From a virus, in UHGV virus genome UHGV-0315017: 13,309 nucleotides of DNA. One strand, given 5' to 3'. Position numbers and translations under genes: made by a program. The first letter of the stretch is position 1; each line of letters starts with the position of its first letter. Under the pieces are notes generated by a model. It did not search any database. It saw nothing but the letters and a program-made list of their open reading frames with translations, and was not told the DNA's origin. Shown piece by piece: positions 406 to 13,083 of the stretch.

Positions 406-482
406 CGGCACGTAGCGCAGCCTGGTAGCGCACCGTCATGGGGTGTCGGGGGTCGGAGGTTCAAATCCTCTCGTGCCGACCA
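406..482 (+). tRNA. proL: tRNA-Pro, anticodon GGG
   Basis: 77-nt sequence CGGCACGTAGCGCAGCCTGGTAGCGCACCGTCATGGGGTGTCGGGGGTCGGAGGTTCAAATCCTCTCGTGCCGACCA; cloverleaf features (GTAGCGCAGCCTGGTAGCGC D-arm, GGTTCAAATCC T-arm, U-GGG-G anticodon loop, encoded CCA). Confidence 0.9.
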
Positions 483-487
483 AATCG
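461..487 (+). other. Putative attL core (3' end of tRNA-Pro), partner of a degenerate copy at 12004-12035
   Basis: TCAAATCCTCTCGTGCCGACCAAATC here versus TTAAACTACTCTCGTGGACCAAAAATC at the far end of the element (CTCTCGTG...GACCAAA shared). Confidence 0.5.
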
Positions 488-489
488 CC

Positions 490-507
490 CACCGGAAAGC
501 ACCGGAT
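490..507 (+). promoter_or_regulatory. Paired direct repeat CACCGGA-N3-CACCGGA (candidate recombination-directionality or regulator binding site)
   Basis: Same paired motif recurs at 564-580 and 2394-2410; read directly. Confidence 0.35.
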
Positions 508-520
508 AAGACAGGGATAA

Positions 521-551
521 CCCGCTAATCACTTGATTGGCGGGTTTTTTT
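521..551 (+). terminator. Rho-independent terminator downstream of tRNA-Pro
   Basis: CCCGCTAATC / GATTGGCGGG stem (one U-G wobble), 4-nt loop, followed by TTTTTTT. Confidence 0.7.
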
Positions 552-563
552 ATGTTTTTTAGT

Positions 564-580
564 CACCGAACATCACCGGA
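564..580 (+). promoter_or_regulatory. Paired direct repeat CACCGA-N5-CACCGGA (second copy of the CACCGGA motif pair)
   Basis: TCACCGAACATCACCGGATT resembles TCACCGGAATACACCGGATT at 2392-2412. Confidence 0.35.
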
Positions 581-603
581 TTTATAAGCTATCAGCCGGA
601 TTT

Positions 604-660
604 TTTAGTTATACGTTTAGTTATACGGGCTGGCGTATAACTAAAGCCGTATAACTAAAA
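604..660. repeat. Arm-type repeat cluster: two direct copies of TTAGTTATACG followed by two inverted copies CGTATAACTAA (candidate integrase arm sites)
   Basis: TTAGTTATACGTTTAGTTATACGG gctgg CGTATAACTAAAGCCGTATAACTAA read directly; the direct-copy half recurs at 11928-11952. Confidence 0.55.
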
Positions 661-690
661 CCCTGTTTTTTCGTGTGGAATCATAGACAT

Positions 691-1932
691 ATGGCGAGAA
701 AAACACACCCATTAACCACAGTGCAGATCAAAGCAGCCAGACCAGCGCAAAAGGAGTACACCCTGCAGGACGGCGGAGGGCTTTTTCTCCTGGTCAAACC
801 GTCTGGATCAAAACTCTGGAGATTTTCCTACTACCGACCATCGGACAAAAAAAGAATATTGCTGAGTTTTGGATCGCTTGAAGATGTTTCCCTGGCTGAT
901 GCCAGAAAACGCCGTAGCGAGTACAGGACGTTAATCAGTGCCGGAACTGACCCGCAGGACCACGAGAGGCAAAAAAGAGAGACAGAGGCCCGAAGACAAG
1001 GGAACACGTTCGAAAATGTGGCGGCGGCATGGTACCAGGTGAAAATCAGCCAGAATCTGGCCCCCAACACGATTAAAGACATCTGGCGTTCGCTGGATAA
1101 ATATGTATTCCCGTTCATCGGCAACACGCCAATAGATACCCTCACCGCCCGAAGGTTCGTTGAAGTGCTTACCCCCATCAAGGAGCGCGGCAACCTGGAA
1201 ACACTCAAGCGGGTTTTACAGCGCGTTAATGAGGTAATGGATTACGCCGCCAACAGTGGGCTGATTGATGCCAATCCGGCTATGAATGTGCGTAAGGCGT
1301 TTCCCTCACCTGTAAAAAAACATATGCCAACAATCCGCCCCGAACAGCTGCCGGAGCTTATGCAGGCTTTATCAGTATCGGCAACAGAACGGCAGACCAG
1401 ATTACTGATTGAATGGCAGTTACTGACCGTAACCCGTCCCGCCGAAGCGTCATCAACGCGGTGGGATGAAATCAACCTGGACGCGAAGCAATGGACGATA
1501 CCTGCCGGACGCATGAAGATGCGCAGGGATCACGTTATCCCGCTTTCCGGTCAGGCTATGGCGGTGCTGGAGGCCATGAAACCAATCAGCCACCACCGCA
1601 ATTACGTTTTCCCAAGTCTGAAAGACCCACAGCAGCCGATGAACAGCCAGACAGCTAACGCAGCATTGCGGCGTATGGGATTCGCTGGCGTGCTGGTGTC
1701 TCATGGATTACGCGCCATATTCAGCACAGCAGCGAACGAGGAAGGATTCGAGCCGGACGTAATAGAGGCGGCACTTGCCCACGTCGACACCAACGAAGTT
1801 AGACGGGCATACAACCGGAGCAACTACATAGAAAAACGCATCGTGCTGATGCGCTGGTGGGGCGAATTTGTCGAGGCTGCGGCGACGGGCGTAACCCTCG
1901 CCAGTGGTAAAAGGGGTATCCGAGCCGTGTAG
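691..1932 (+). CDS. int: Tyrosine recombinase / integrase, P4 type
   Basis: N-terminal region (LTTVQIKAARP...YTLQDGGGLFLLVKPSGSKLWRFSYY) typical of P4-family integrases; C-terminal catalytic region with HGLR and terminal Tyr motifs (VSHGLRAIFSTAA...AYNRSNY). ATG at 691 preferred over GTG at 673 from the ORF track. Confidence 0.9.
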   Translation: MARKTHPLTTVQIKAARPAQKEYTLQDGGGLFLLVKPSGSKLWRFSYYRPSDKKRILLSFGSLEDVSLADARKRRSEYRTLISAGTDPQDHERQKRETEARRQGNTFENVAAAWYQVKISQNLAPNTIKDIWRSLDKYVFPFIGNTPIDTLTARRFVEVLTPIKERGNLETLKRVLQRVNEVMDYAANSGLIDANPAMNVRKAFPSPVKKHMPTIRPEQLPELMQALSVSATERQTRLLIEWQLLTVTRPAEASSTRWDEINLDAKQWTIPAGRMKMRRDHVIPLSGQAMAVLEAMKPISHHRNYVFPSLKDPQQPMNSQTANAALRRMGFAGVLVSHGLRAIFSTAANEEGFEPDVIEAALAHVDTNEVRRAYNRSNYIEKRIVLMRWWGEFVEAAATGVTLASGKRGIRAV

Positions 1933-2009
1933 CTGTACAGAAAACCAGTAAAAACTACGAAAACCATGTAAAACCGTCGTATAATTGCATCAAATTTAAC
2001 GACAAGGCC

Positions 2010-2261
2010 GTGAAACATGAAACCGTTAAGATGCAAAAAAATATCAGATGCAATTGCGACGGGCTGCAACTGGCCCTGATGGTTCAGCATGAATTTTGGT
2101 CAACCTACGATCCGGAGGACAGGACGACGGCCCCATCAAAAAAACAGGTAGTAGATTTTCTGGTATCCCGTGGCGCTTCCAGAAATCTGGCGGTAAGTAT
2201 TGATAAGGTCGTACGTCCGGCATCTATGAAGATCGGAGGCAGGCCCAAAAAATGGCGGTAA
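2010..2261 (+). CDS. Hypothetical small protein (83 aa); weak call
   Basis: ORF without a convincing Shine-Dalgarno sequence; followed closely by a strong terminator; could instead be a non-coding leader. Confidence 0.3.
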   Translation: MKHETVKMQKNIRCNCDGLQLALMVQHEFWSTYDPEDRTTAPSKKQVVDFLVSRGASRNLAVSIDKVVRPASMKIGGRPKKWR

Positions 2262-2272
2262 CAATCCTGGAA

Positions 2273-2295
2273 GCGGCAGAAATGCCGCTTTTTTT
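2273..2295 (+). terminator. Rho-independent terminator
   Basis: GCGGCAGAAATGCCGC hairpin followed by TTTTTTT. Confidence 0.7.
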
Positions 2296-2393
2296 ATAAT
2301 TCCATTTCAAATCATCAATATAAAAAACGGTGTATACCGTTTAAAAACGGTGGGAACTGTTTTTACCCATATCCGATGATTTACCGTATTTGT

Positions 2394-2410
2394 CACCGGA
2401 ATACACCGGA
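2394..2410 (+). promoter_or_regulatory. Paired direct repeat CACCGGA-N3-CACCGGA just upstream of the AlpA-like gene
   Basis: GTCACCGGAATACACCGGATT 19-35 nt upstream of the ATG at 2429; same motif pair as near attL. Confidence 0.35.
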
Positions 2411-2428
2411 TTCACAAGGTAAATCACG

Positions 2429-2635
2429 ATGGAAGCAATCAGAAAAATTATCTTTCGCCAGGAAGTAAAAAAAATTATCCACATCAAGGCAGACAGCACG
2501 CTGCAAAGCATGATCAACGCCGGAGAATTTCCGCAGGGTTTTCGCGTTGGTTTACGCCGTCGCGGATGGTATGAGGATGATGTGTTGGCCTGGCAGAAAG
2601 AACGCGAACAGGAAGCACGCGGAACGGCTGCTTAA
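2429..2635 (+). CDS. alpA: AlpA-family (prophage regulatory / excisionase-like) helix-turn-helix protein
   Basis: 68 aa; spacing of conserved residues (STL..I..G.FP....LG.R..GW.E.DV..W) matches the AlpA/Xis-like family as recalled; position after int is typical for P4-like and PICI elements. Confidence 0.75.
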   Translation: MEAIRKIIFRQEVKKIIHIKADSTLQSMINAGEFPQGFRVGLRRRGWYEDDVLAWQKEREQEARGTAA

Positions 2636-2660
2636 CGGGTATCACAGATATGACAAACAC

Positions 2661-2688
2661 GAAAAAAGCGGCCCCGATATGGAGCCGC
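2661..2688 (-). terminator. Probable terminator for the leftward RHH operon
   Basis: GCGGC / GCCGC stem with 11-nt loop; on the minus strand it is followed by a T6 run (plus-strand CGAAAAAA at 2661-2667). Confidence 0.45.
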
Positions 2689-2783
2689 CTTTCTGAACAA
2701 TTAACCCGCTGCGCCTTATGTGTATGTGATCCCAAACATAAGCACGGGGATGATAGCCGCTATCAGGCTGGTGGGCAATGCAA

Positions 2784-2972
2784 TCAGTCTGGTTCAGTTC
2801 GTTGCCATACCTGCAATGAGCGCTTTTCCCTATACTCTTTAAGGAATTGCTCAAGGGCAAAAGCACATGGCGCGAATCTTTCTGATTCATGCTCTATCTT
2901 TCTGCGCCGTCTTTTCCGTGCCGGTGATAATGTTTTGGTCAATTCTTTATCAGTCATTGTGTTGTCCTGCAT
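2784..2972 (-). CDS. Hypothetical basic small protein, downstream partner of the RHH gene (alternative start at 2957 has a better SD)
   Basis: 62-aa ORF with KRRRRK basic patch; ATG at 2957 is preceded by AGGAC; convergent with alpA and ends before the terminator at 2661-2688. Confidence 0.4.
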   Translation of the reverse strand: MQDNTMTDKELTKTLSPARKRRRRKIEHESERFAPCAFALEQFLKEYREKRSLQVWQRTEPD

Positions 2973-3014
2973 AGCAATGCGCCGTAATACCTCACACCAC
3001 GGCGCTGATAGTGA

Positions 3015-3194
3015 TTATTCTGATTCTTTGGCCTTGCGGCGCTGGCGGCGTTTGATCTCGCCTTCAAGTGCCGAAACGATAAATTGCCCTGTACTTTCGC
3101 CATCTTCCTTTAAATTTTCTACAGCATCAGCTATTGCGTGAGGTACTCGAGCCTCAAGCTTTTTGGATTTTGCATTAACTGCTTTTGTTGCCAT
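3015..3194 (-). CDS. Ribbon-helix-helix (CopG/Arc-like) DNA-binding protein, candidate island repressor
   Basis: Internal start MATKAVNAKSKKLEARVPHAIADAVENLKEDGESTGQFIVSALEGEI: basic beta-strand then two helices; GAGGAA SD 7 nt upstream of the ATG at 3194. The ORF-track 5' extension to 3323 is rejected. Confidence 0.65.
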   Translation of the reverse strand: MATKAVNAKSKKLEARVPHAIADAVENLKEDGESTGQFIVSALEGEIKRRQRRKAKESE

Positions 3195-3363
3195 ATCTGA
3201 TTTCCTCGTTATTAGGTGGCTGACAGTATACACACAAGAAAACGGAAAAACACTATTGACGTGGCTGACACCTTTATCAAGGTAATCGATGAAAAGACAA
3301 AGCCCCGCAAGTGTCGTTACCACTCGCAGGGCTTCTAACCAACAACGTAAACTAGGAGCCGTT
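3195..3363. promoter_or_regulatory. Divergent promoter region with direct repeats GTGGCTGACA (3215-3224 and 3260-3269)
   Basis: One repeat overlaps a rightward TTGACG -35-like hexamer, the other lies beside a leftward TATACT -10-like hexamer. Confidence 0.5.
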
Positions 3364-3561
3364 ATGGTTGCTGTAAATCATATACCACACCTTGTACACA
3401 CACAAACGGCCTTTGTGTGGCGTTTTCTGGCACTGAGTGCCGGAGAATCTCAAATCATCCACGTAACCGCCTGGACGGAACGCGAAGCGCGTGGCCGTTG
3501 CCCGTCCGGTTGTGTTGCAGTATTCGCCGCCCGTATTCGTCAGGGGTCACATCATGCGTAA
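3364..3561 (+). CDS. Hypothetical small protein, paralog A (65 aa)
   Basis: AGGAG SD 7 nt upstream; shares FVWRF...TEREAR...ARIRQG motifs with the product of 3848-4015. Confidence 0.5.
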   Translation: MVAVNHIPHLVHTQTAFVWRFLALSAGESQIIHVTAWTEREARGRCPSGCVAVFAARIRQGSHHA

Positions 3562-3639
3562 AAACCGCTTGCAAAAAATTATAACGGGGCTGTATGCTTC
3601 CCCCGTCGCCCACATGGCGACCGGGTTTAGCAGCCTGAA

Positions 3640-3683
3640 TACTGTAGCGGACAGCCGCTTATATTCCGATATGCGGTTTTTTT
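3640..3683 (+). terminator. Hairpin plus T-run between the two paralog genes
   Basis: AGCGGACAGCCGCT and CCGC..ATAT/ATATGCGG stems followed by TTTTTTT (3677-3683). Confidence 0.4.
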
Positions 3684-3847
3684 GTGTCCGTAAGCCTACC
3701 CATACCCGCATTATGGCGGGGCGTAACGGGGGAGCCTTTGCGCTCGCTGGTTCCTACAGTGCCAGTCTGCTAACCCTGTTACGTCTCGCCACCCCGTTTA
3801 GCAGCGTAGTAGCGAGACTCCTTAAAATTACTGTAGGAGCCTTTCAC

Positions 3848-4015
3848 ATGGCTGTATCCGCACGCCCTTACTTTGTCTGGCGCTTTATGCAGTGCCAGGA
3901 AAAACAAACATCACTCTTTACCGTCACGGCAGCAACAGAACGCGAAGCCCGCGCCCAGCTGCCGCACGCACATCTGATTTTTGTCGCCCGTATTCGTCAG
4001 GGGGTAGGCTTATGA
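3848..4015 (+). CDS. Hypothetical small protein, paralog B (55 aa)
   Basis: AGGAGCC SD 9 nt upstream of ATG 3848; C-terminal 46 aa align with paralog A. The 174-aa ORF-track call from 3491 is rejected. Confidence 0.5.
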   Translation: MAVSARPYFVWRFMQCQEKQTSLFTVTAATEREARAQLPHAHLIFVARIRQGVGL

Positions 4016-4242
4016 GCCAGGAAATCACACTACAACAGGCAGCAGAACGCGCCCACCAAATCGAAGTTATTTGCGCACTGGCAGAGGATTACCCTGGCAT
4101 GATGACCGACAGCGAATCAGGGGCAATCATCGGCTTACTTAAACGCCTTAGCGGTGAGGTCTGCGTATTCCTGATCGATGAACAGGAAAGAAGAACGCTT
4201 ATTTCTAACGAAAAAAAATGCGGAGGGGTACATGTGCAATAA
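4012..4242 (+). CDS. Hypothetical protein (76 aa), translationally coupled to paralog B (ATGA overlap)
   Basis: Internal Met of ORF 3892-4242 with start overlapping the upstream stop; no recognisable motif. Confidence 0.45.
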   Translation: MSQEITLQQAAERAHQIEVICALAEDYPGMMTDSESGAIIGLLKRLSGEVCVFLIDEQERRTLISNEKKCGGVHVQ

Positions 4243-4462
4243 AACCACACCGGACGCAGCAGAAGAAGCAATGCAAATACTGATACGTGCGCTCGTTGAT
4301 GTTACCCACATGGTGGAGATTATGGAGAGAAAATCACAGTCGGAGCACGACAAAAGAAAACTTAAAACAATAAAAATAATTGCCAAAAACTCGCTGATAA
4401 AAGTTACAGACATCCTTAATGAGGACATTAAAAGAATAAGGGAGAAAATTTGTGATGCATAA
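4232..4462 (+). CDS. Hypothetical protein (76 aa) in AT-rich segment
   Basis: GGAGGGG SD 5-6 nt before ATG 4232; Lys/Ile/Glu-rich, predicted helical; composition visibly more AT-rich than flanks. Confidence 0.5.
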   Translation: MCNKTTPDAAEEAMQILIRALVDVTHMVEIMERKSQSEHDKRKLKTIKIIAKNSLIKVTDILNEDIKRIREKICDA

Positions 4463-4682
4463 AATCGATTTTGAAGTATTAATCCACTCTGAAAACGCAT
4501 TAATTAAAGCACGCGAAATGAATGCGTTGTTAATTAAATTAATTGAAGTGCCGGAAGGTGGCGAAGATCATTCATCATTAATGTTTGCCGCTGTTCAGAC
4601 ATTATTGACACCTGTTATTGATGAACTCAATAAGGCTATGGCAATTCACGAGAATAATAAAGCGCCCCACACCGGAGAATAA
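4455..4682 (+). CDS. Hypothetical protein (75 aa) in AT-rich segment, overlaps the previous gene
   Basis: GGAGAA SD 8 nt before ATG 4455; start overlaps the stop of 4232-4462. Confidence 0.5.
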   Translation: MHKIDFEVLIHSENALIKAREMNALLIKLIEVPEGGEDHSSLMFAAVQTLLTPVIDELNKAMAIHENNKAPHTGE

Positions 4683-4687
4683 AAATA

Positions 4688-4987
4688 ATGAAACTTAAAT
4701 ATTCTGGCTTAACTGCCAGTGGCAAAACTCGCACTAAATTCATGCGCGGTGATATTTACCGCGACCAGTACGGCGGCACGGTAATGATTAAGGGCGTGGA
4801 GGAACGGCGCATCACCTACCGTCGTGAAGGCTACGAATATGATTGCGTGATGCCTGTTTATCAGTTTCGGCGTGATTTTTCTCTGGTACAGGCAGCGCCC
4901 CGCAGTAAACCAACCAGCAGGGAGAAAGCACGCGCCAATATTCAGGAAATAAAAAAGATGCTTAACGTATTCAGGGGTAAAAAATGA
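4688..4987 (+). CDS. Hypothetical protein (99 aa) immediately upstream of and coupled to the primase gene
   Basis: GGAGAA SD; stop overlaps the primase start (ATGA at 4984-4987). Confidence 0.55.
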   Translation: MKLKYSGLTASGKTRTKFMRGDIYRDQYGGTVMIKGVEERRITYRREGYEYDCVMPVYQFRRDFSLVQAAPRSKPTSREKARANIQEIKKMLNVFRGKK

Positions 4988-6732
4988 AACTGGCACCGAA
5001 CGTAAAAAAACAACCACGCGGAATAAAACACAAAGACACAGAGGTAATTATTTTCGCGGGTAGTGATGCGTGGGCACATGCAAAACAGTGGCAGGAGCAG
5101 GACGGCCCCGCATCCGGCGATAATGTGCCGCCTGTGTGGCTTGGGCCAAATCAGCTTGCCGAACTTGATGCACTGAAAATTGTTCCGGATGGAAAAAAAC
5201 GCGTAAGGCTGTACCAGGCCGGAGAACTGGATTTGGTGGAGACCAAAAAGATTGGTCAGAAGCTGGCGGCGGCAGATATTCAGGACGCAAATTTTTACCA
5301 CGAAGGAATGCACGTCCAGAAGTGTGAAAACTGGCGGCGCTATCTGAATGCTGAGCGTGAAAATATTGCCGCAGGGCTTACCATGCCGGAGCAGAAAAAT
5401 ACGCAACTGGCACAAATGGCAGACAGTGAGCGCGCGCAGCTGCTTGCCGAGCGCTTTGATGGCGTTTGTGTGCATCAGGAAAGTGAAATCGTTCACGTAT
5501 GGCGCGGCGGGGTATGGTGTCCGGTCAGCACAATGGAACTTAGCCGCGAAATGGTGGCGATCTATTCAGAGCACAGGGCCACTTTCAGCAAGCGCGTAAT
5601 CAATAACGCCGTGGAAGCGTTAAAAGTTATTGCCGAACCAATGGGCGAGCCGTCCGGCGATTTGCTGCCGTTCGCCAATGGTGCGCTTGACCTGAAAACG
5701 GGGGAATTTTCCCCGCACACGCCGGAGAACTGGATCACCACGCACAACGGCATTGAGTACACGCCACCAGCACCTGGGGAGAACATCCGCGATAACGCGC
5801 CAAACTTTCATAAATGGCTTAAGCACGCAGCCGGAAAAGACCCGCGCAAGATGATGCGTATATGTGCCGCGCTGTACATGATTATGGCGAACCGGTACGA
5901 CTGGCAGATGTTTATTGAGGCCACCGGAGACGGCGGGAGCGGTAAAAGTACATTCACGCACATAGCCAGCCTTCTGGCAGGGAAACAGAACACGGTAAGC
6001 GCTGAAATGACATCGCTTGATGATGCTGGTGGACGTGCGCAGGTTGTCGGGAGTCGTCTTATCGTCCTGGCTGACCAGCCGAAATATACAGGCGAAGGAA
6101 CGGGCATCAAGAAAATCACGGGCGGTGACCCCGTGGAAATTAACCCGAAATACGAAAAGCGTTTCACGGCTGTAATCAGGGCGGTGGTGCTGGCGACCAA
6201 CAATAACCCGATGATATTCACCGAACGGGCCGGAGGTGTGGCACGTCGTCGCGTGATTTTCCGTTTCGACAATATCGTCAGTGAGGCCGAAAAAGACAGG
6301 GAGCTACCGGAAAAGATCGCGGCTGAAATCCCTGTCATTATCCGCCGATTGCTGGCGAACTTTACCGACCCTGAGAAGGCACGGGCTTTACTACTGGAAC
6401 AGCGTGACGGTGATGAAGCTCTGGCAATAAAGCAACAGACGGATCCGGTTATTGAGTTTTGCCAGTTCCTGAATTTTCTGGAGGAAGCACGCGGCCTGAT
6501 GATGGGCGGCGGTGGCGATTCAGTGAAGTACACGACCAGGAACAGCCTTTACCGCGTCTATCTGGCGTTTATGGCATACGCAGGCAGGAGCAAACCGCTA
6601 AACGTAAATGACTTTGGCAAGGCTATGAAGCCTGCCGCAAAAGTTTACGGACATGAATATATTACGCGGAAAGTTAAGGGGGTAACGCAGACTAACGCAA
6701 TAACAACAGACGAGTGCGACGCGTTTTTATAA
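4984..6732 (+). CDS. Replication initiator: primase / SF3 (D5-like) helicase, P4 alpha-like C-terminal region
   Basis: 582 aa with Walker A GDGGSGKST and downstream helicase-like motifs; size and position match the pri-rep genes of P4-like and PICI elements. Confidence 0.85.
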   Translation: MKLAPNVKKQPRGIKHKDTEVIIFAGSDAWAHAKQWQEQDGPASGDNVPPVWLGPNQLAELDALKIVPDGKKRVRLYQAGELDLVETKKIGQKLAAADIQDANFYHEGMHVQKCENWRRYLNAERENIAAGLTMPEQKNTQLAQMADSERAQLLAERFDGVCVHQESEIVHVWRGGVWCPVSTMELSREMVAIYSEHRATFSKRVINNAVEALKVIAEPMGEPSGDLLPFANGALDLKTGEFSPHTPENWITTHNGIEYTPPAPGENIRDNAPNFHKWLKHAAGKDPRKMMRICAALYMIMANRYDWQMFIEATGDGGSGKSTFTHIASLLAGKQNTVSAEMTSLDDAGGRAQVVGSRLIVLADQPKYTGEGTGIKKITGGDPVEINPKYEKRFTAVIRAVVLATNNNPMIFTERAGGVARRRVIFRFDNIVSEAEKDRELPEKIAAEIPVIIRRLLANFTDPEKARALLLEQRDGDEALAIKQQTDPVIEFCQFLNFLEEARGLMMGGGGDSVKYTTRNSLYRVYLAFMAYAGRSKPLNVNDFGKAMKPAAKVYGHEYITRKVKGVTQTNAITTDECDAFL

Positions 6733-6744
6733 TTTTTTGTAATT

Positions 6745-6972
6745 GCTGTCTACCCTGTCTACCCGAGTAAAGAAAAATACATTTAATTCAGTGCATTAAG
6801 TTAGGTAGATGGCCTTTTTTTACTGTCTACCCACTATCTACCCTCTCTACCTGATTTTACCTGAATCAGACAGGGAGGTAGACACGGGGTAGATACTGGA
6901 TAAAAGCACTCTACCCCGCTGAAAGCCGCGCCATTACTGGTATGAGGGCCACTAAGGTAGATAAGGTAGACA
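6745..6972. repeat. Iteron array (candidate replication origin): about 12 copies of TCTACC(C) / GGTAGA(C/T) in both orientations
   Basis: CTGTCTACCCTGTCTACCC, GGTAGATGG, CTGTCTACCCACTATCTACCCTCTCTACC, GAGGTAGACACGGGGTAGAT, CTCTACCCC, AAGGTAGATAAGGTAGAC; non-coding and immediately downstream of the primase-helicase gene. Confidence 0.65.
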
Positions 6973-7020
6973 AGGGGAGGCACAACTCAAAACTTTTTAA
7001 ACGAGGGGGTAAAAATAAAT

Positions 7021-7299
7021 ATGCACACTTCAGGGAAATTTAATAAATCACTCAAAAAACGCAGAGACAGAACAGAACCGAAATATCGCGCGTTAGACAT
7101 TACAGAGCACGCTTTAAAGGTGGCAATCAGAACGATAGACCGCCACGCGGGGGAAGGATACGCGAAAGCACATCCCGAACTGATAAGCGCATTCATGACC
7201 ACGACGGCGGCAAATTTTGCCACGCTGACAGAGCGGGAGATTGCCGAAGCGGAACAGGTAACAACCATCAACGTTAAAACCGGAGAGGTGGAATCATGA
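7021..7299 (+). CDS. Hypothetical protein (92 aa)
   Basis: GAGGGGG upstream of ATG; coupled to the ssb start (ATGA at 7296-7299). Confidence 0.55.
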   Translation: MHTSGKFNKSLKKRRDRTEPKYRALDITEHALKVAIRTIDRHAGEGYAKAHPELISAFMTTTAANFATLTEREIAEAEQVTTINVKTGEVES

Positions 7300-7706
7300 C
7301 AGCACAGATAGCCGCTTACGGGCGGCTAGTGGACGACCCGCAGGTAAAACAGACCAGCAAGGGCACACCGATGACGCTGGCGCGTATGGCGGTATCGTTG
7401 CCATGTAGTCAGGCGCAGGATGGGCAGGCGACGTTATGGCTATCGGTCATCGCATTTGGTAAGCAGGCCGACTTCCTGGCTAAACATCAAAAAGGCGACG
7501 TTGCCAGCGTATCCGGCACGATGCAGGTCAGCCAGTGGACCGGACAGAACGGGGAAACGCGGCAGGGTTATCAGGTTATTGCAGACAGCGTAATCAGTGC
7601 CCGTGCGGCACGTCCTGGCGGGAACAGACGCAAAACCACAGGCACACAGGGTAATCAGCCACCAGCGGGAGACGATGACCCCTACGGTGATGATATTCCG
7701 TTCTGA
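7296..7706 (+). CDS. ssb: Single-stranded DNA-binding protein (compact, 136 aa)
   Basis: OB-fold-like N-terminal region, Gly/Gln/Pro-rich linker and acidic C-terminal tail DDDPYGDDIPF matching the conserved SSB tail (...DDDIPF). Confidence 0.85.
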   Translation: MTAQIAAYGRLVDDPQVKQTSKGTPMTLARMAVSLPCSQAQDGQATLWLSVIAFGKQADFLAKHQKGDVASVSGTMQVSQWTGQNGETRQGYQVIADSVISARAARPGGNRRKTTGTQGNQPPAGDDDPYGDDIPF

Positions 7707-7714
7707 ACGCACAG

Positions 7715-7736
7715 GCCGGAGAAAATCCGGCTTTTT
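7715..7736 (+). terminator. Rho-independent terminator after ssb
   Basis: GCCGGA gaaaa TCCGGC hairpin plus TTTTT. Confidence 0.75.
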
Positions 7737-7742
7737 GTATCC

Positions 7743-7786
7743 AAAAAAAGCCCGATAAGTACAGGAGGAAGCTTATCGGGCTTTTG
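7743..7786. terminator. Second hairpin terminator (bidirectional: A-run upstream, T-run downstream)
   Basis: GCCCGATAAG ... CTTATCGGGC 10-bp stem, 12-nt loop, then TTTT. Confidence 0.6.
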
Positions 7787-7858
7787 CTTACGAGGTTAAC
7801 AGCATGGTGACTACTGTTGCCGTAAATCATTTCATAATTTGCAACGTAACTCAATTTC

Positions 7859-7908
7859 ATTGCGCAAAATGCAATCCTGATTATAATCAGGACTGGATGA
7901 ACATCCAG
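7859..7908 (+). promoter_or_regulatory. Candidate capsid-operon promoter (TTGCGC - 16 bp - TATAAT) embedded in an 18-bp perfect palindrome, followed by a second palindrome
   Basis: TCCTGATTATAATCAGGA (7875-7892) contains a consensus -10 hexamer; CTGGATGAACATCCAG (7893-7908) follows directly; about 35 nt upstream of the ATG at 7944. Confidence 0.5.
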
Positions 7909-7943
7909 TTATGATTTTTTAAGTCAAAGAGGAATTTCTTACT

Positions 7944-9206
7944 ATGGCTGAAGAGAAAAAAGGCGGTGTTTCGGTGTACATAAGCCCCGACATCGTGAAG
8001 GCGCTCAAGGAACGCCACCAGCAGAACGTAAAAGCAGGCATTGCGGCAGGACTTGACCCGCTGGCGATGGTTGAGCCGTCAACAGGCTGGCAGGTACGCG
8101 CCTATTTACGCGCGGCGCTGGGTATGAATCAGGTTCACGGGGGGGGAATAATGACAGTAAAAGCAATGGCACTTAACACTAACCAGCTTTTTGCGTACCT
8201 GAATCGCGAGGATATTGCGGAATTTAAATTCAGTCCGCTGTTTACCACGCTGTTTTTCCCGAACGTGGCGACATTCAGCACGCAAAACATCATGCTGGAT
8301 ACCCTGGACATTGAAGAAGTCACCATGTCGGCGTTTTGTTCGCCTATGGTGGGTAGCCAGGTTCAGCGCGATAAAGGGTACGAAACCAGCACAATCAAAC
8401 CTGGCTACATGAAGCCAAAGCACGAAATCGATCCAACGAAAACCATCATGCGCATGGCTGGAGAAGATCCGGCACAGCTTAACGACCCTACCTATCGCCG
8501 TATGCGCCTGATTACTGGCAATATGCGCCGCCAGATAAACGCCATAAAAGCGCGCGTGGAATGGCTGGCGGTAAATGCGGTAACGACCGGAAAAAACATC
8601 ATTGAGGGCGAAGGCATAGAGCGCTATGAAATCGACTGGAAGATACCGGAAAAAAACATCATAGAGCAGGCCGACGGTAAAAAATGGTCAGAGCAGGACA
8701 AAGAAATCCACGATCCAATCTATGATATCGAACTATACGCCGATCAGGCAGGTTGCCCCGCCAACGTCATGATTATGGGCGCTGAGGTATGGCGAACGTT
8801 ACGCAGCTTTAAAAAATTCCGTGAGCTGTACGATCTTTCCCGTGGTTCAGAGTCCGCCGCAGAGCTGGCATGTAAAAACCTGGGCGAAGTGGTGAGCTTT
8901 AAAGGCTATCTGGGCGATATTGCCCTTATCGTCTATTCCGGCAAATACGCCGACAGTGACGGCAGAGAAAAATATTTCCTTGAGCCTGATTTGCTTGTCC
9001 TGGGCAACACCAACAATAAAGGGCTGGTGGCCTATGGTGCGATTATGGATCAGGACGCAGTAAGAACGGGGGCAACGCAAAACATGTACTACCCGAAAAA
9101 CTGGATTGAGGACGGAGATCCGGCGATTGAGTACGTGCAGACACACAGTGCACCGCAGCCGGTACCGGCAGTTATTCGCAAATTTGTTACCGTCAAAATT
9201 GGTTAA
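7944..9206 (+). CDS. Major capsid protein, lambda gpE-like, with about 70-aa N-terminal extension
   Basis: Long blocks shared with lambda gpE as recalled: KFSPLF..LFF, PGYMKPKHE, EDPAQLNDPTYRRMR, SFKGYLGDIALIVYSGKY, LVLGNT, YPKNW..GDPA. AGAGGA SD before ATG 7944. Confidence 0.88.
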   Translation: MAEEKKGGVSVYISPDIVKALKERHQQNVKAGIAAGLDPLAMVEPSTGWQVRAYLRAALGMNQVHGGGIMTVKAMALNTNQLFAYLNREDIAEFKFSPLFTTLFFPNVATFSTQNIMLDTLDIEEVTMSAFCSPMVGSQVQRDKGYETSTIKPGYMKPKHEIDPTKTIMRMAGEDPAQLNDPTYRRMRLITGNMRRQINAIKARVEWLAVNAVTTGKNIIEGEGIERYEIDWKIPEKNIIEQADGKKWSEQDKEIHDPIYDIELYADQAGCPANVMIMGAEVWRTLRSFKKFRELYDLSRGSESAAELACKNLGEVVSFKGYLGDIALIVYSGKYADSDGREKYFLEPDLLVLGNTNNKGLVAYGAIMDQDAVRTGATQNMYYPKNWIEDGDPAIEYVQTHSAPQPVPAVIRKFVTVKIG

Positions 9207-9217
9207 CGGGGGATTCT

Positions 9218-9553
9218 ATGGACACTCCATACATTGAGTTATTTGCAGGCAGTCAGCAGGTCGCCACGACGCTGGTACATTTTGCCGCTGATGCTGGCTT
9301 TATTCAGGAATTTACCCCGCTGATGCTGGCGGACAATGGCGAGTTTAAGCCGTGGGATGGTAAGGAATCTGGCAAGGCTGTTTATCTGACCTCGTACCCT
9401 GTGGACACGTCAAAGCAGAAATCAGCACAGTGTTACAAGACGGGGATATTCAATATTGCCGCCGTTAACTGGCCTGAGAGCGTCGACACCGATGCGAAAA
9501 AATGCGCCGCCTTTGCGGGTTCCGGCGTATCCGTTCAGCCGCTGGCCCGATAA
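9218..9553 (+). CDS. Head decoration protein, lambda gpD-like
   Basis: 111 aa; TPLML, WDG, YKTGIF, WPE and KK.AAFAG blocks match lambda gpD (110 aa) as recalled; GGGGG SD. Confidence 0.85.
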   Translation: MDTPYIELFAGSQQVATTLVHFAADAGFIQEFTPLMLADNGEFKPWDGKESGKAVYLTSYPVDTSKQKSAQCYKTGIFNIAAVNWPESVDTDAKKCAAFAGSGVSVQPLAR

Positions 9554-9565
9554 GCAGGGGGAACG

Positions 9566-9979
9566 ATGGCAACGAATGAAAGCATCATGACGCTACCGCT
9601 GGCGAGTAAATTTAAAGCCGAAGCGCGGGCAATGGCTGACAGAGGTTTATCAACCTATGAGGCCGTATATCAACTAAACAAACTGGAAGAGCAGGACAAG
9701 CCGCGCGCTGATGCGATTATGGCGCTTCATGAGCATAAAGACTATCAGCCGCTGTTGCGTGCAATGGCAAACGTGCCTTGTATCGATGTTGGTACGGCTA
9801 AAAGCATCCTTAGCATGACCATAGAGCAGGAACGCCAGAAGGTTGCACCAGAGCTTACCGCAGCCTTTGAAAACTTTATGGACATGCACAGCCCGCAAGC
9901 CGTATCAGCTGGCATGGCATACGATGGCAGAAACCAGGGCGATGACGGCGACATCGATCGCATACTGAAAACCATCTGA
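9566..9979 (+). CDS. Hypothetical protein (137 aa) between the decoration gene and cos
   Basis: AGGGGGA SD; acidic C-terminus (QGDDGDIDRILKTI); no family recognised. Confidence 0.6.
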   Translation: MATNESIMTLPLASKFKAEARAMADRGLSTYEAVYQLNKLEEQDKPRADAIMALHEHKDYQPLLRAMANVPCIDVGTAKSILSMTIEQERQKVAPELTAAFENFMDMHSPQAVSAGMAYDGRNQGDDGDIDRILKTI

Positions 9980-9985
9980 GACAAG

Positions 9986-10009
9986 GCCGGAGAAATCCGG
10001 CTTTTTTTT
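9986..10009 (+). terminator. Rho-independent terminator (near-duplicate of the 7715-7736 hairpin)
   Basis: GCCGGA gaaa TCCGGC plus TTTTTTTT. Confidence 0.8.
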
Positions 10010-10010
10010 A

Positions 10011-10086
10011 CGGGTCCTTTCCGGCATATGGACCCGTTACGGGGCGGCGACCTCGCGGTTTTTCGCTATTTATGAGCTTTTTCAGG
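10011..10086 (+). other. Lambda-type cos site X (cosQ-like, cosN, I2-like); cohesive-end 12-mer at 10042-10053
   Basis: ACGGGTCCTTTCCGG...CCGTTACG|GGGCGGCGACCT|CGCGGTTTTTCGCTATTTATGA closely matches the lambda right-end/left-end junction as recalled (…CGGGTCCTTTCCGGTGATCCGACAGGTTACG | GGGCGGCGACCTCGCGGGTTTTCGCTATTTATGAAA). Confidence 0.8.
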
Positions 10087-10186
10087 GGGGTGGTGGTGGT
10101 TTTGTTGTTTGCTCTATCTTTATGAATGAAAAGGGAAAGATGCAAACAATACACCAACCTGAAGCAGTAATTAAGTTGGTGTATTA

Positions 10187-10729
10187 ATGAAATCGCACCT
10201 GATGAACAAAAAAAACATGGCGAAAAGCTGCCGTGTAAGTGCGACAGCGTTCGACAAGTGGGGAGTGACTCCCGTTGAACGTAAAGGCCGTGAGGCGTTT
10301 TACGATGTTGCCAGCGTGATAGACAATAGGGTTAACAATGCAATTAGCCAGCTTACAAACGACAAAGGCGATATTGATGATGATGAACTCTTACGAGTCA
10401 GGATCAGATTACTGACAGCACAGGCGGAGGCGCAGGAACTTAAAAACGAGCGCGATCGCGGTGACGTGATTGATACTGAGTTTTGCCTGTACGCGCTTTC
10501 AAAGCTGGCGAGTCAGATTTCATCAATCATGGACAGCCTCCCGCTTACTATGCAAAGGAGCTTCCCACAGATTACCCCCGCCATGCTGGATAGGCTTAAA
10601 AGGGAAGTGGTTAAAGCCTGTAATGCCAGTGCCAGAGTTGCCGACAACCTCCCACAGATACTGGCTGATTACTTGAAAGAAACAACCGGAAACGTACCGG
10701 AAAAGTTGCTACAGAAGAAAGGCGAGTAA
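10187..10729 (+). CDS. Terminase small subunit, lambda Nu1-like
   Basis: 180 aa (Nu1 is 181); N-terminal HTH region and central block LTAQAEAQELKNERDRGDVIDTEFCLYALSKLASQISSIMDSLPLTMQRSFP align with lambda Nu1 (LTRAQADAQELKNARDSAEVVETAFCTFVLSRIAGEIASILDGLPLSVQRRFP) as recalled. Confidence 0.85.
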   Translation: MKSHLMNKKNMAKSCRVSATAFDKWGVTPVERKGREAFYDVASVIDNRVNNAISQLTNDKGDIDDDELLRVRIRLLTAQAEAQELKNERDRGDVIDTEFCLYALSKLASQISSIMDSLPLTMQRSFPQITPAMLDRLKREVVKACNASARVADNLPQILADYLKETTGNVPEKLLQKKGE

Positions 10730-10753
10730 CAGACGCGCAATTATTGAACAAAA

Positions 10754-10868
10754 CTGAGAAACGACATGAAAGCGTCATAAATCGCCATTTTAGATGATTA
10801 CCGTGTCGTTTCTTTTTATTGTGTATCTATTTAAAAACAAATAGTTATGTTCGAGAAGTACCGACATG
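10754..10868 (-). promoter_or_regulatory. cosB-like region belonging to cos site Y: R1-like (10754-10768), R2-like (10801-10817), IHF/I1-like AT tract (10821-10844), R3-like (10852-10868)
   Basis: Read on the minus strand from cosN-Y the order is R3-like, I1-like, R2-like, R1-like, as in lambda cosB; cores GTCGTTTCT resemble lambda R sites but differ in their 3' halves. Confidence 0.6.
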
Positions 10869-10874
10869 CTTTTT

Positions 10875-10952
10875 CCAGAAAAATTTTCATAAACAGATAA
10901 AAACCGCGAGGTCGCCGCCCCGTAACGGGCCATAATTCCAGGAAGGACCCGA
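10875..10952 (-). other. Lambda-type cos site Y in inverted orientation; cohesive-end 12-mer at 10909-10920 (minus strand)
   Basis: Reverse complement reads CGGGTCCTTCCTGGAATTATGGCCCGTTACGGGGCGGCGACCTCGCGGTTTTTATCTGTTTATGAAAATTTTTCTGG, about 75 bp near-identical to site X and forming an inverted repeat with it. Confidence 0.8.
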
Positions 10953-10984
10953 CGACACCAGACTATCAGAGCGATGGGGGCACA

Positions 10985-11167
10985 ATGACAGAAGCCGAAA
11001 TACTGGGATTAATCCGCCGTGATGGTATCCAGCTTAATGGCGTGGATATGCGCAACATACGAACCAGAGTTCTTGAGTTGCTGGCCTACCGTCGCCGCGT
11101 TGAGATGTATCGGGAGAAGGAAAAAATTACGTACCACTGGAAGAAGCCGGAGCGGTTGCGGCGGTAA
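10985..11167 (+). CDS. Hypothetical small basic protein (60 aa)
   Basis: GGGGG SD 5 nt before the ATG; Arg-rich; no family recognised. Confidence 0.4.
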   Translation: MTEAEILGLIRRDGIQLNGVDMRNIRTRVLELLAYRRRVEMYREKEKITYHWKKPERLRR

Positions 11168-11231
11168 CTGGTTGATATTTTCGGAAACCTCAATTTGAGG
11201 AGGCCGGAAGCGTCACCCTTTAGATTCTGAA

Positions 11232-11246
11232 TGGTGATAATCACCA
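11232..11246. repeat. 15-bp palindrome TGGTGATAATCACCA (copy 1 of 3)
   Basis: Perfect palindrome; flanked CTGAA...CGCC. Confidence 0.6.
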
Positions 11247-11255
11247 CGCCCAATC

Positions 11256-11290
11256 GTGACGGAGAGTGACAGCCAGTGACACGCCGTGAC
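11256..11290 (+). repeat. Four direct GTGAC repeats at exact 10-bp spacing
   Basis: GTGACggaga GTGACagcca GTGACacgcc GTGAC; one helical turn per repeat. Confidence 0.5.
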
Positions 11291-11399
11291 AAAAGACGGT
11301 TTAACCGTTAATTAAAAATCGACGGGATTTTGTGTTTTCCGGACGACGTGGCCAACGTCATTTTTTAGCGAAAAATTCTGATTAAGGTCATTGTCTGAA

Positions 11400-11414
11400 T
11401 GGTCATAATGACCA
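11400..11414. repeat. 15-bp palindrome TGGTCATAATGACCA (copy 2 of 3)
   Basis: Perfect palindrome, preceded by CTGAA like copy 1. Confidence 0.6.
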
Positions 11415-11494
11415 CGCAGACCATCAAGGCAACCATAACGATTTTCGTTACGGTTGATGTGTGCCTTCGTCCGGCATTCGGACGATATAAGGGA

Positions 11495-11509
11495 TGGTCA
11501 TAATGACCA
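11495..11509. repeat. 15-bp palindrome TGGTCATAATGACCA (copy 3 of 3)
   Basis: Identical to copy 2. Confidence 0.6.
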
Positions 11510-11657
11510 CTCCTACAGAACAGGTAAAACCCACCAGCCTGATTAACAGTTAACCGGAAAAAAATCCGGCATGGGGGGGGAGTGGTTAGCCACGAACAAC
11601 GAATAAGCTGGACACCGCGCCCCCTCTCACGCAGAGAAAAAATTACCGTTTCGTAGT

Positions 11658-11790
11658 AGTTAACATGTTAACTGCCTGATGAAGCGTTGTTGTTGATTTT
11701 GTCTTTATGATTCATCTGGTTGCGAGCAAAAAATGTTAACTACCTTTTTGGTAAAAATGTTAACAGGGCAGAGGTTAACATTAACCTGGC
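11658..11790. repeat. Cluster of GTTAAC-containing motifs including the 16-bp palindrome AGTTAACATGTTAACT
   Basis: AGTTAACATGTTAACT, AATGTTAACTACC, AATGTTAACAGGG, GGTTAACATTAACC read directly in non-coding DNA. Confidence 0.4.
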
Positions 11791-11796
11791 GTAAAT

Positions 11797-11822
11797 CCCG
11801 ATATGGTGATCACCATATCGGG
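11797..11822. repeat. 26-bp perfect palindrome CCCGATATGGTGATCACCATATCGGG
   Basis: Read directly; equals its own reverse complement. Confidence 0.6.
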
Positions 11823-11927
11823 GAACATCCACCAGCTTAAAAACGAATGAGCGAAAAAAAATCCAGGTAGAATCATGGAAGTCGCTAGGGCAATCGCCGT
11901 TTAAATTGTGCATTTTTTCAGCAAATT

Positions 11928-11952
11928 ATTTTAGTTATACGTTTGGTTATAC
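11928..11952 (+). repeat. Arm-type direct repeat TTTTAGTTATACGTTTGGTTATACGG, partner of 604-628
   Basis: 24 of 25 positions identical to the left-end copy. Confidence 0.55.
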
Positions 11953-12003
11953 GGTTTAAAAGTTGAATCAATAATATTTATTAAAATCATGCGGTTACAC
12001 GCT

Positions 12004-12035
12004 AAATTAAACTACTCTCGTGGACCAAAAATCCC
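12004..12035 (+). other. Putative attR core: degenerate copy of the tRNA-Pro 3' end
   Basis: TAAATTAAACTACTCTCGTGGACCAAAAATCCC versus tRNA TTCAAATCCTCTCGTGCCGACCAAATCGCCC. Confidence 0.5.
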
Positions 12036-12068
12036 AAGAAAAAACCAACCTTCACGGTTGGTTTTTTT
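12036..12068. terminator. Bidirectional rho-independent terminator between the island end and the convergent autotransporter-like gene
   Basis: A-run, CCAACC ttcac GGTTGG hairpin, T-run (GTTTTTTT). Confidence 0.75.
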
Positions 12069-12129: not shown

Positions 12130-13083
12130 TCAGAACGTCCAGACTACACCCGCCTGAGTTGTGCTGCTTTCTTCACGGGAGAAACGACTATCGATACCGA
12201 GCGTCAGCCCCGTCAATGTTTGCTCAAAGCCAGCGCCTGCATCAGTGGTCACGTCGTTGCGGCTGTTAATTGCCGAACTCCACATCGCCGTATCGTAATT
12301 AACGCCTTTTACGCTACCAAGACGCCCACGCACGGTGTCCAGTTCTGCATCAAATACCAGCGGTTGTGCTGCCGCCATATTCAGCACATCCGTGGTTGAA
12401 GGGGTCATTTGTGCGCGATTCTCTGCGAGACTCCAGCTATGGTTGCCATTATCCAGCAAGGTATATTCATACGTACTGATATCAACAACGCTTCCGGCAT
12501 TGCCCAACGTAAATGCAGCATCACCGCCGCCCGTTGTTACCAGTGTAAGGCTATCTCCTGCTGCCGGGCTGGCACCGGTGTCCGTCACGAATATTTTGAA
12601 ATCACCTGTTGCTTTAACCTCCAGTAGTCCTCCCTTTTCTATAACGGCAAAGACGGCAATCCCATCTTTTTCAACAATTAAGCGCCCGCCTTTAATCGTG
12701 GGATCATTCGCCGCGCCATAAACCTGTAGCACTCCATTATTGATCGTAGTCTGATTTACCGCGCCACCCATTTGAACAATTTGATAACCATCATTTAATA
12801 CTGCGTATTCTGCGGTGCCATTTATTTCAACGTACTGATATCCCCCGTTAATTTCAGTATTACTACTTACACCAAATTCTTATATATGCTGTTCTCCGCC
12901 AGGATTGATTTTCGTATTATTGGCGGTCCAATAAACCAGCTGGATATCTTTTTCCAGGACAACACCATCAACTGGCTCACCATACTCAACAGTTGATGCC
13001 AATGCTATGGGCGAATATAACGCTGTAGCCACCAGAACAGATATTGCGGAACGACAAAGAGAAACAGAACCAGATTGGTGCAT
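12130..13083 (-). pseudogene. Autotransporter/adhesin-like gene interrupted by an in-frame TAA (12880-12882); possibly a yejO-type locus
   Basis: ORFs 12880-13083 (signal-peptide-like N-terminus) and 12130-12771 (Gly/Thr-rich beta-helix-like repeats ending ...VVWTF) are in the same frame, separated by a single TAA. The total length is too short for a complete autotransporter. Confidence 0.5.

Follow-up and report, generated by a model that had tools for sequence, protein, structure and literature searches.

Which kind of element occupies the 3' end of the tRNA-Pro gene in UHGV virus genome UHGV-0315017 is the question raised by the 13,309-nt stretch of DNA analysed here, which as a whole is referred to as the window. 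A preliminary description, made from the letters alone, had seen a self-contained island with a backbone resembling that of P4 and of phage-inducible chromosomal islands (PICIs) and with a lambda-like late module, a combination that it did not recognize as any described satellite family. Our comparisons with named islands and complete Escherichia coli genomes indicate that the element is very probably a classical Gram-negative PICI (GN-PICI) of the EcCICFT073 family, belonging to the proL-integrating lineage of EcCIATCC25922, EcCIED1a.1, SdCI1012 and others. Since lambda-like late genes on a P4/PICI-like backbone are documented in EcCICFT073, this mixture represents the published GN-PICI architecture, and the suggestion of an undescribed family has to be given up. 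The lambda-like capsid and decoration genes, the dual cos sites, the iteron origin, the C4-type RNA and the shortened attR are all already described for the family.

Gene content and affiliation of the island

The assignment is carried by the following features, which include several open reading frames (ORFs):

691-1932, plus strand: tyrosine integrase Int with Arm-DNA-bind_3, Phage_int_M and Phage_integrase domains (Pfam and PHROG scans)
2429-2635, plus strand: AlpA-family regulator/excisionase (Pfam AlpA, E = 0.0035; PHROG 66/2790 excisionase/regulator, 5.5e-7)
4984-6732, plus strand: Pri-Rep replication initiator of the primase type (D5_N, DUF5906, Pox_D5; Pfam and PHROG)
6745-6975, no strand: replication origin of ~230 bp with many (G/T)TCTACC iterons in both orientations (sequence reading; inverted repeat I12)
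7021-7706, plus strand: conserved 92-aa ORF and single-strand DNA-binding protein (SSB) (Pfam and PHROG, homology)
7944-9206, plus strand: 68-aa ORF (phrog_3255) continuing in frame into the gene for a major capsid protein similar to lambda gpE (Pfam and PHROG, alignment)
9218-9553, plus strand: head decoration protein of the lambda gpD type (99% identity to EcCICFT073 c1500, 36% to lambda gpD)
9566-9979, plus strand: orf137, a conserved PICI protein (97% identical to the product of the EcCICFT073 gene following the decoration gene)
10011-10186, plus strand: cos1, with cosQ-like ACGGGTCCTTTCCGG, cosN GGGCGGCGACCT (10042-10053) and an island-type cosB that includes a (GGT)n run and N15-like TTGTTGTTT
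10187-10729, plus strand: full-length Nu1-family small terminase TerS, 180 aa (Pfam Phage_Nu1, 2.3e-23; phrog_57, 3e-53)
10740-10951, minus strand: cos2, inverted relative to cos1, with cosN at 10909-10920 and a lambdoid-type cosB (alignment)
10985-11167, plus strand: conserved last ORF with a 99-nt in-frame deletion relative to its 93-aa homologues in Nissle and CFT073 (alignment)

The features by which GN-PICIs are recognized were found together in this island. A tyrosine integrase with all three integrase domains lies at the left end by the att site, a co-oriented AlpA-family gene stands downstream of it, and Pri-Rep is directly followed by the origin, in which the (G/T)TCTACC iterons occupy both sides of a stretch that, judged by eye, is A+T-rich; Pri-Rep followed by an origin with two iteron sets around an AT-rich stretch is the layout described for GN-PICIs. 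With 11.5 kb the island falls into the size range of the group (~8-15 kb, mostly unidirectional), all of its assigned genes except two small ones being on the plus strand, and genes for lysis, tail, portal, protease and the large terminase TerL were found neither in the ORF list of the window nor by the Pfam and PHROG scans. Moreover, the packaging sites are of the helper type, both of them having the cosN of lambda.

The closest experimentally studied relative is EcCICFT073. Its c1499 encodes a capsid protein like lambda gpE and its c1500 a decoration protein like gpD, two cos sites are present (PMC6092414), and it shares with the window the order int-alpA-(Icd zone)-DUF4222-pri-ori-ssb-68-aa ORF-capsid-decoration-orf137-cos1-(slot)-cos2-last ORF. 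Identities between the two islands range from 90 to 99% for the proteins from Pri to orf137 (Pri 90%, SSB 98.5%, capsid 94%, decoration protein 99%, orf137 97%), and the DUF4222 proteins share 85%. In contrast, EcCICFT073 has a different att site (ycfD/roxA-phoQ), another AlpA allele, another cosB at cos1 and an integrase that is only 24% identical, as fits its insertion at roxA-phoQ; in addition, its slot between the cos sites encodes a 144-aa RppA where the window has the 180-aa TerS, and perC is absent from the window. The left-end proteins are matched instead by islands at the chromosomal site of the window. PICIs listed at yejM-luxR/aidA comprise EcCIATCC25922, EcCIED1a.1, EcCI11128, EcCI11368.1, SdCI1012 and SbCISb227 (Fillol-Salom et al., 2018; PMC6092414 Table S1), and the island of ATCC 25922, which is 99.99% identical to that of Nissle 1917, served us as the named reference for this lineage. 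These proL PICIs have the same gene order as the window, a length of 11.3-11.4 kb and repeats of the same TAGTTATACG type. Complete identity (100%) exists between the window Int and its counterparts in the ATCC 25922/Nissle, S1-CAM and NCTC9112 islands, between AlpA and the product of the same-position gene of ATCC 25922, and between TerS and that of ATCC 25922/Nissle, while Pri reaches 98% identity to NCTC9112. EcCIED1a has been called a prototypical classical PICI in the literature, and 21 of the 29 reference GN-PICIs encode a capsid protein (PMC10111431).

For EcCICFT073, it has been demonstrated that induction depends on AlpA and the helper and that the DNA is packaged at phage size (PMC6092414); helper-dependent induction, packaging, transfer and interference are shown for that island only, whereas the window island is known from its sequence. 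By analogy with these experiments, a lambdoid helper phage would switch on alpA, AlpA would activate the rightward operon, Int would excise the island, Pri-Rep would replicate it from the iteron origin into concatemers, and the helper terminase would cut at cosN and package it into phage-sized heads made by the helper.

Several points weigh against the assignment. The Pfam score of AlpA lies under the curated cut-off, and no relative of TerS more than 46% identical was found in 50,697 phage records, so that no helper can be named. The assays of the ISME J paper covered the islands of CFT073, IHE3034, 042 and 18098, no proL island being among them. Deletion of the capsid gene c1499 or the decoration gene c1500 in EcCICFT073 did not restore plaque formation of the helper and left transfer unchanged (PMC6092414), and neither gene is known to have a role. 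Finally, a poly-G frameshift and the loss of 99 nt from the last ORF suggest that the window copy may be partly impaired.

These last lesions form the starting point for the alternative that the island is a PICI by descent whose copy in the window is now a defective, immobile remnant, which we regard as unlikely. A run of eight G residues at 8139-8146 takes the place of GGGGGTG in four related islands, the additional base bringing the 68-aa ORF and the capsid gene into one reading frame; the last ORF has lost its 99 nt between short CGCCGTG repeats; and both changes set the window copy apart from EcCIATCC25922 and the PICIs listed with it. The neighbouring yejO is itself decayed, and none of the complete E. 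coli genomes contains the exact mosaic of the window, of which at best 87% is covered, at 94% identity. However, other strains have copies of Int, AlpA and TerS that do not differ at any residue, no damage is seen in Pri, in the iterons of the origin, in the two cos sites or in the two att cores, the capsid gene retains its own ATG (8151) and a G-rich ribosome-binding site despite the frameshift, and the capsid gene is dispensable for the transfer of EcCICFT073. The extra G may exist in the genome as an allele, or it may have arisen as a sequencing error in the homopolymer; a scan of GTDB species-representative genomes gave no exact match to the fusion junction. Judged from the sequence, the core functions of this copy (int, alpA, pri, the origin, both cos sites, terS and both att cores) look intact.

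A P4-like satellite depending on a P2-type helper is highly improbable. The window shares with P4 a tRNA-targeting integrase of the P4 type, an AlpA/Vis-like regulator, a D5-type primase-helicase replicon with a D5_N primase-type protein, a CI/C4-type RNA and a cos site matched to its helper, but homologues of sid, psu, delta and eps were found neither in the ORF list nor by Pfam and PHROG, nor does any unassigned ORF have sufficient size. Moreover, its cosN GGGCGGCGACCT and the cosQ at cos1 are those of lambda, its late genes are like lambda gpE, gpD and Nu1 rather than of the P2 type, and a published comparison treats P4 and the E. coli PICIs as independent lineages with only distant homology between their Int, AlpA and Pri proteins (ISME J paper). 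Equally improbable is a capsid-forming PICI (cf-PICI), an element that makes small heads of its own and hijacks nothing but tails. The major capsid protein, the decoration protein and TerS of the island would fit such an element, as would a weak PHROG match of orf137 to the C-terminal part of the head maturation protease family, and the cf-PICI EcCIEDL933 and the helper-embedded PICI (HE-PICI) 11capE have the GN-PICI backbone (int, alpA, pri) in common with the window, 11capE also carrying a gpE-family capsid gene and a cos region. However, cf-PICIs contain a complete HK97-type head and packaging module and HE-PICIs sit inside the late genes of the helper, neither of which applies here: the defining portal, protease, head-tail connector, TerL and HNH genes were all absent from the ORF list and the Pfam/PHROG results, orf137 does not resemble lambda Nu3, and packaging of the homologous EcCICFT073 yields phage-sized DNA only. 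A decayed lambdoid prophage without satellite character, to which the lambda-like capsid, decoration and Nu1 genes and the lambda-type cos sites might point, is just as hard to sustain, given a capsid protein and a TerS at most 47% and 46% identical, respectively, to any of the 50,697 phage records, a compact gene order that recurs at different att sites with different integrases, and a primase-type replicon of its own next to which lambdoid immunity, replication, lysis and tail genes are missing.

Junctions and repeats at proL

The assignment of the window to the proL lineage of GN-PICIs is accompanied by precisely defined boundaries, for which these features are relevant:

406-482, plus strand: proL, tRNA-Pro(GGG), intact, the integration target (ARAGORN, the sole tRNA in the window; Rfam tRNA, 54.9 bits)
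468-484, plus strand: attL core CTCTCGTGCCGACCAAA (homology of island-free genomes ends at 484)
519-551, plus strand: island-borne hairpin and T-run replacing the native proL terminator (fold -21.8 kcal/mol, z = -7.0)
606-657, no strand: four TAGTTATACG repeats, two direct and two inverted, probable P-arm Int arm sites (repeat scan)
11932-11953, no strand: two arm repeats of the TAGTTATACG type (repeat scan)
12015-12029, plus strand: attR core CTCTCGTG--GACCAAA (= CTCTCGTGGACCAAA), a tRNA 3' fragment without CC (empty-site comparison, motif scan)
12038-12068, both strands: native bidirectional proL/yejO terminator in host DNA, with A-run, hairpin and T-run (folds -16.0 and -15.3 kcal/mol)

In E. 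coli the locus reads yejM-proL-yejO-narP, and the island is inserted in the 3' end of proL, between yejM-proL and a remnant of yejO. Its span of ~11.5 kb corresponds to 485-12014 of the window, or extends to 12029 when the attR core is included. The empty site of the K-12-type allele reads CTCTCGTGCCGACCAAA|AATCCCAAGAAAAAACC (also given as AATCCCAAGAAAAAACCAACC), with window position 484 joined straight to 12030. When the flanks were searched against 5,426 complete E. coli genomes, the left flank was matched by every one of them, the island-free genomes ending at 484 in the matches sampled, and the query was covered to at least 80%, i.e., into island-type sequence after proL, in 422; island-free genomes began to match the right flank at 12015, again in the matches sampled, and coverage of at least 80% was reached in 304. 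These two counts imply that roughly 6-8% of the genomes have 485-12014 as an insertion, and ~5,000 of the 5,426 are without the island.

The join of 484 to 12030 and the flank searches bear out the discrete, self-contained island at tRNA-Pro that had been proposed from the letters, as the island-free strains lack 485-12014. The tRNA 3'-end repeat reported for both ends is likewise real, its coordinates having been off by only one or two bases: CTCTCGTG-N(0-3)-GACCAAA matched the window twice, at 468-484 and 12015-12029, and not once in 200 shuffles, and the right copy sits exactly on the junction and is not part of an unrelated flank. The integrase, placed about 200 bp after the tRNA, starts with an ATG at 691, 209 bp beyond the tRNA end. 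Each end does have a terminator, the left one island-borne and the right one native to the proL/yejO interval, since its hairpin is also present in the empty site. The host genes on the two sides, yejM (plus) and the yejO remnant (minus), converge on the island as described. The remnant of this autotransporter gene (12130-13083, minus strand) has lost two internal segments of ~630 and ~1,000 bp relative to full-length alleles.

The right repeat had been called degenerate, which is correct insofar as it is a shortened copy of the tRNA end, but does not reflect decay. The attR sequence ...AATTAAACTACTCTCGTG--GACCAAA|AATCCC is identical in all four proL islands compared (window, Nissle/ATCC 25922, S1-CAM and NCTC9112), and the common 2-nt CC gap is therefore a feature of the lineage. 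Strand exchange would take place within the 7-bp GACCAAA common to attL, attR and attB, because only this placement leaves CC in attL but not in attR, and excision from there would restore an intact proL. Deletions in the tRNA fragment of attR have been described for PICIs at tRNA-Pro, and it was proposed that the shortened fragment may debilitate the tRNA upon excision and so act as an addiction device (Tommasini et al., 2023; PMC10111431).

The TAGTTATACG repeats occur six times in the window, as compared to 0.56 copies expected by chance, and lie ~120 bp inside attL and ~60-80 bp inside attR. Since they are internal to the island and absent from the empty site, they are most likely arm-type binding sites for Int. 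They correspond to TTTGTAGTTATACGTTTGTAGTTATACGG, the "att site core" published for the proL PICI lineage (PMC6092414 Table S1), which shows that this core consists of probable arm sites within the island, whereas the junction itself lies at the 3' end of the tRNA. In line with this, at least 15 reference PICIs were remapped to tRNA genes by Tommasini et al. (2023; PMC10111431), already implying a junction at the tRNA end.

The cos sites and the small terminase between them

The cosN GGGCGGCGACCT of cos1 and cos2 is identical to that of lambda, as is the cosQ-like ACGGGTCCTTTCCGG of cos1, and the two sites form an inverted repeat (I1) with 72-nt arms of 82% identity. Their cosB regions are of different types. 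On the side of cos1, a GGTGGTGGTGG run (10089-10111) is followed by TTGTTGTTTG, an arrangement that resembles the R3 region of N15, GGTTGTTGTTT, shifted by ~9-10 bp, while the cosB of cos2 closely resembles that of the CFT073 icd prophage, whose lineage is the known helper of EcCICFT073 (PMC10111431). The cos1 of EcCICFT073 has CCACCACCACC, the reverse complement of GGTGGTGGTGG, at a similar distance from cosN, and the motif is thus oppositely oriented in TerS-type and Rpp-type islands.

The slot between the cos sites is occupied in EcCICFT073 by rppA (144 aa), whose product binds the TerS of the helper and retargets it to the island cosB (PMC6739421). A protein of this kind, defined for Rpp-type cos PICIs by a length of ~144-153 aa and a TerS-like DNA-binding domain without a TerL-binding tail (Fillol-Salom, 2019), was not found in the window; the missing C-terminal TerL-binding region of Rpp proteins has been discussed elsewhere (PMC9026076). 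The slot protein of the window aligns end to end with N15 gp1 (46%) and lambda Nu1 (38%), including a C-terminal ...P..L.(D/E)Y(L/I) stretch that is missing from the shorter RppA, and BLASTP detected no similarity between it and RppA (E = 1.4). The possibility of a long Rpp protein was therefore dropped in favor of a 180-aa, full-length Nu1 homologue. A sequence search of the PDB gave no meaningful match for it, to neither RppC nor the DNA-binding domain of Nu1. For the capsid protein, no relative above 47% identity was found among the 50,697 phage records, and this value together with the limit of 46% for TerS indicates that both are old, PICI-specific lineages and not recent captures.

The content of the slot differs between islands. 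Inverted cos1 and cos2 flank an rpp or terS gene in four of the five islands compared, the window included, and an empty slot in the fifth. Overall, terS is present in the window, Nissle, NCTC9112 and O157:H7 islands, rppA in that of CFT073 and no gene in that of S1-CAM. The O157:H7 island, located at the att site of EcCICFT073, carries terS (97.6% nucleotide identity) where CFT073 has rppA, and in S1-CAM a cosB of the TerS type lies between the cos sites in opposite orientation. This distribution suggests that the segment between the cos sites is an exchangeable cassette that could be swapped or inverted through the inverted cos repeats. Among the 5,426 complete E. coli genomes terS was found in 768 and rppA in 97, the latter counted at a nucleotide identity of at least 80%, which would not take in RppC-type genes. 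Our literature search found no functional study of the TerS-type cassette, the published mechanistic work that we found covering only Rpp.

If the proteins behave as their sequences predict, the TerS of the island would attach to the N15-like cosB next to cos1 and bring in the TerL of the helper directly, without an Rpp-TerS heterodimer, whereas the helper-like cosB of cos2 could be used directly by the helper terminase. The logic proposed here is that of SaPI1 and SaPIbov1, in which a satellite TerS recognizes the satellite packaging site and borrows the TerL of the helper. However, these islands are of the pac type, come from Gram-positive hosts, are unrelated in sequence and form small capsids, while the window island is of the cos type with a Nu1-family TerS of predicted function.

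Mosaic segments and the place of this copy in the lineage

The remaining features lie in the left half of the island and in its right arm:

2010-2261, plus strand: conserved hypothetical ORF, followed by a terminator at 2269-2299
2784-3323, minus strand: two small genes, a 62-aa ORF and a YlcI/YnfO-family protein (ORF list, PHROG)
3289-4015, plus strand: Icd/Ash-like ("Bro zone") reading frames, mosaic between islands (PHROG 29966/1743; RefSeq names in relatives)
3592-3683, plus strand: a1b1/isrK-like RNA target element resembling P4 seqA (Rfam, 45.5 bits against a gathering score of 46.7; isrK 35.7 against 50)
3709-3796, plus strand: C4/CI-type immunity antisense RNA (Rfam RF01695, 71.5 bits against a gathering score of 45)
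4012-4987, plus strand: four small conserved PICI ORFs, including a DUF4222 protein at 4688-4987 (Pfam and PHROG, homology)
11170-12014, no strand: non-coding right arm of ~840 bp with palindromes at 11226-11249, 11394-11417, 11489-11512 and 11800-11819

The window combines segments that are found separately in its relatives. The int-alpA module is 99% identical to ATCC 25922, while the Icd/C4 zone and the right arm match S1-CAM and NCTC9112, and Pri and the origin are 90-94% identical to relatives. Compared with the ATCC 25922/Nissle island, the Icd/Ash/C4 zone (~3050-4650) differs, Pri and the origin share 90% and SSB 72%, and the right arm (11200-11900) matches strains other than these two.

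The Icd/Ash zone contains the a1b1/isrK-like target upstream of the C4/CI-type RNA. This RNA is present in two copies in the S1-CAM island and also occurs in that of NCTC9112, whereas no copy reaching the Rfam gathering score was found in EcCICFT073 or in the Nissle island, and it is thus a mosaic accessory rather than a family-wide component. The occurrence of C4/CI-like RNAs in GN-PICIs has already been reported, and with its absence from these two islands the idea of a previously unnoticed PICI repressor was dropped.

In the late region, the capsid protein shares 94% identity with EcCICFT073 c1499 and 43% with lambda gpE. The match of orf137 to the head maturation protease family has an E value of 6e-9, and a sequence search found no relative of orf137 in the PDB; its candidacy as a Nu3-type scaffold was dropped, the comparison with lambda Nu3 by BLASTP having given no similarity. 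The palindromes of the right arm comprise three copies of TGAATGGT(G/C)ATAAT(C/G)ACCAC and a fourth of different sequence, GATATGGTGATCACCATATC; they look like operator sites for a dimeric DNA-binding protein.

In summary, the window adds a further mosaic copy to an E. coli PICI lineage that is already catalogued, and this in itself matters little for discovery. It does, however, show clearly the shortened tRNA fragment of attR, which has been proposed elsewhere to serve as an addiction device. Moreover, it draws attention to the TerS-type cassette, which is commoner in E. coli than rppA and, as far as we found, unstudied in the literature. Although we put this forward tentatively and as somewhat less than an even chance, TerS-type GN-PICIs may hijack cos packaging in a third way, in which a complete TerS similar to Nu1 and N15 gp1 would bind an N15-like, single-site cosB and recruit the TerL of the helper.

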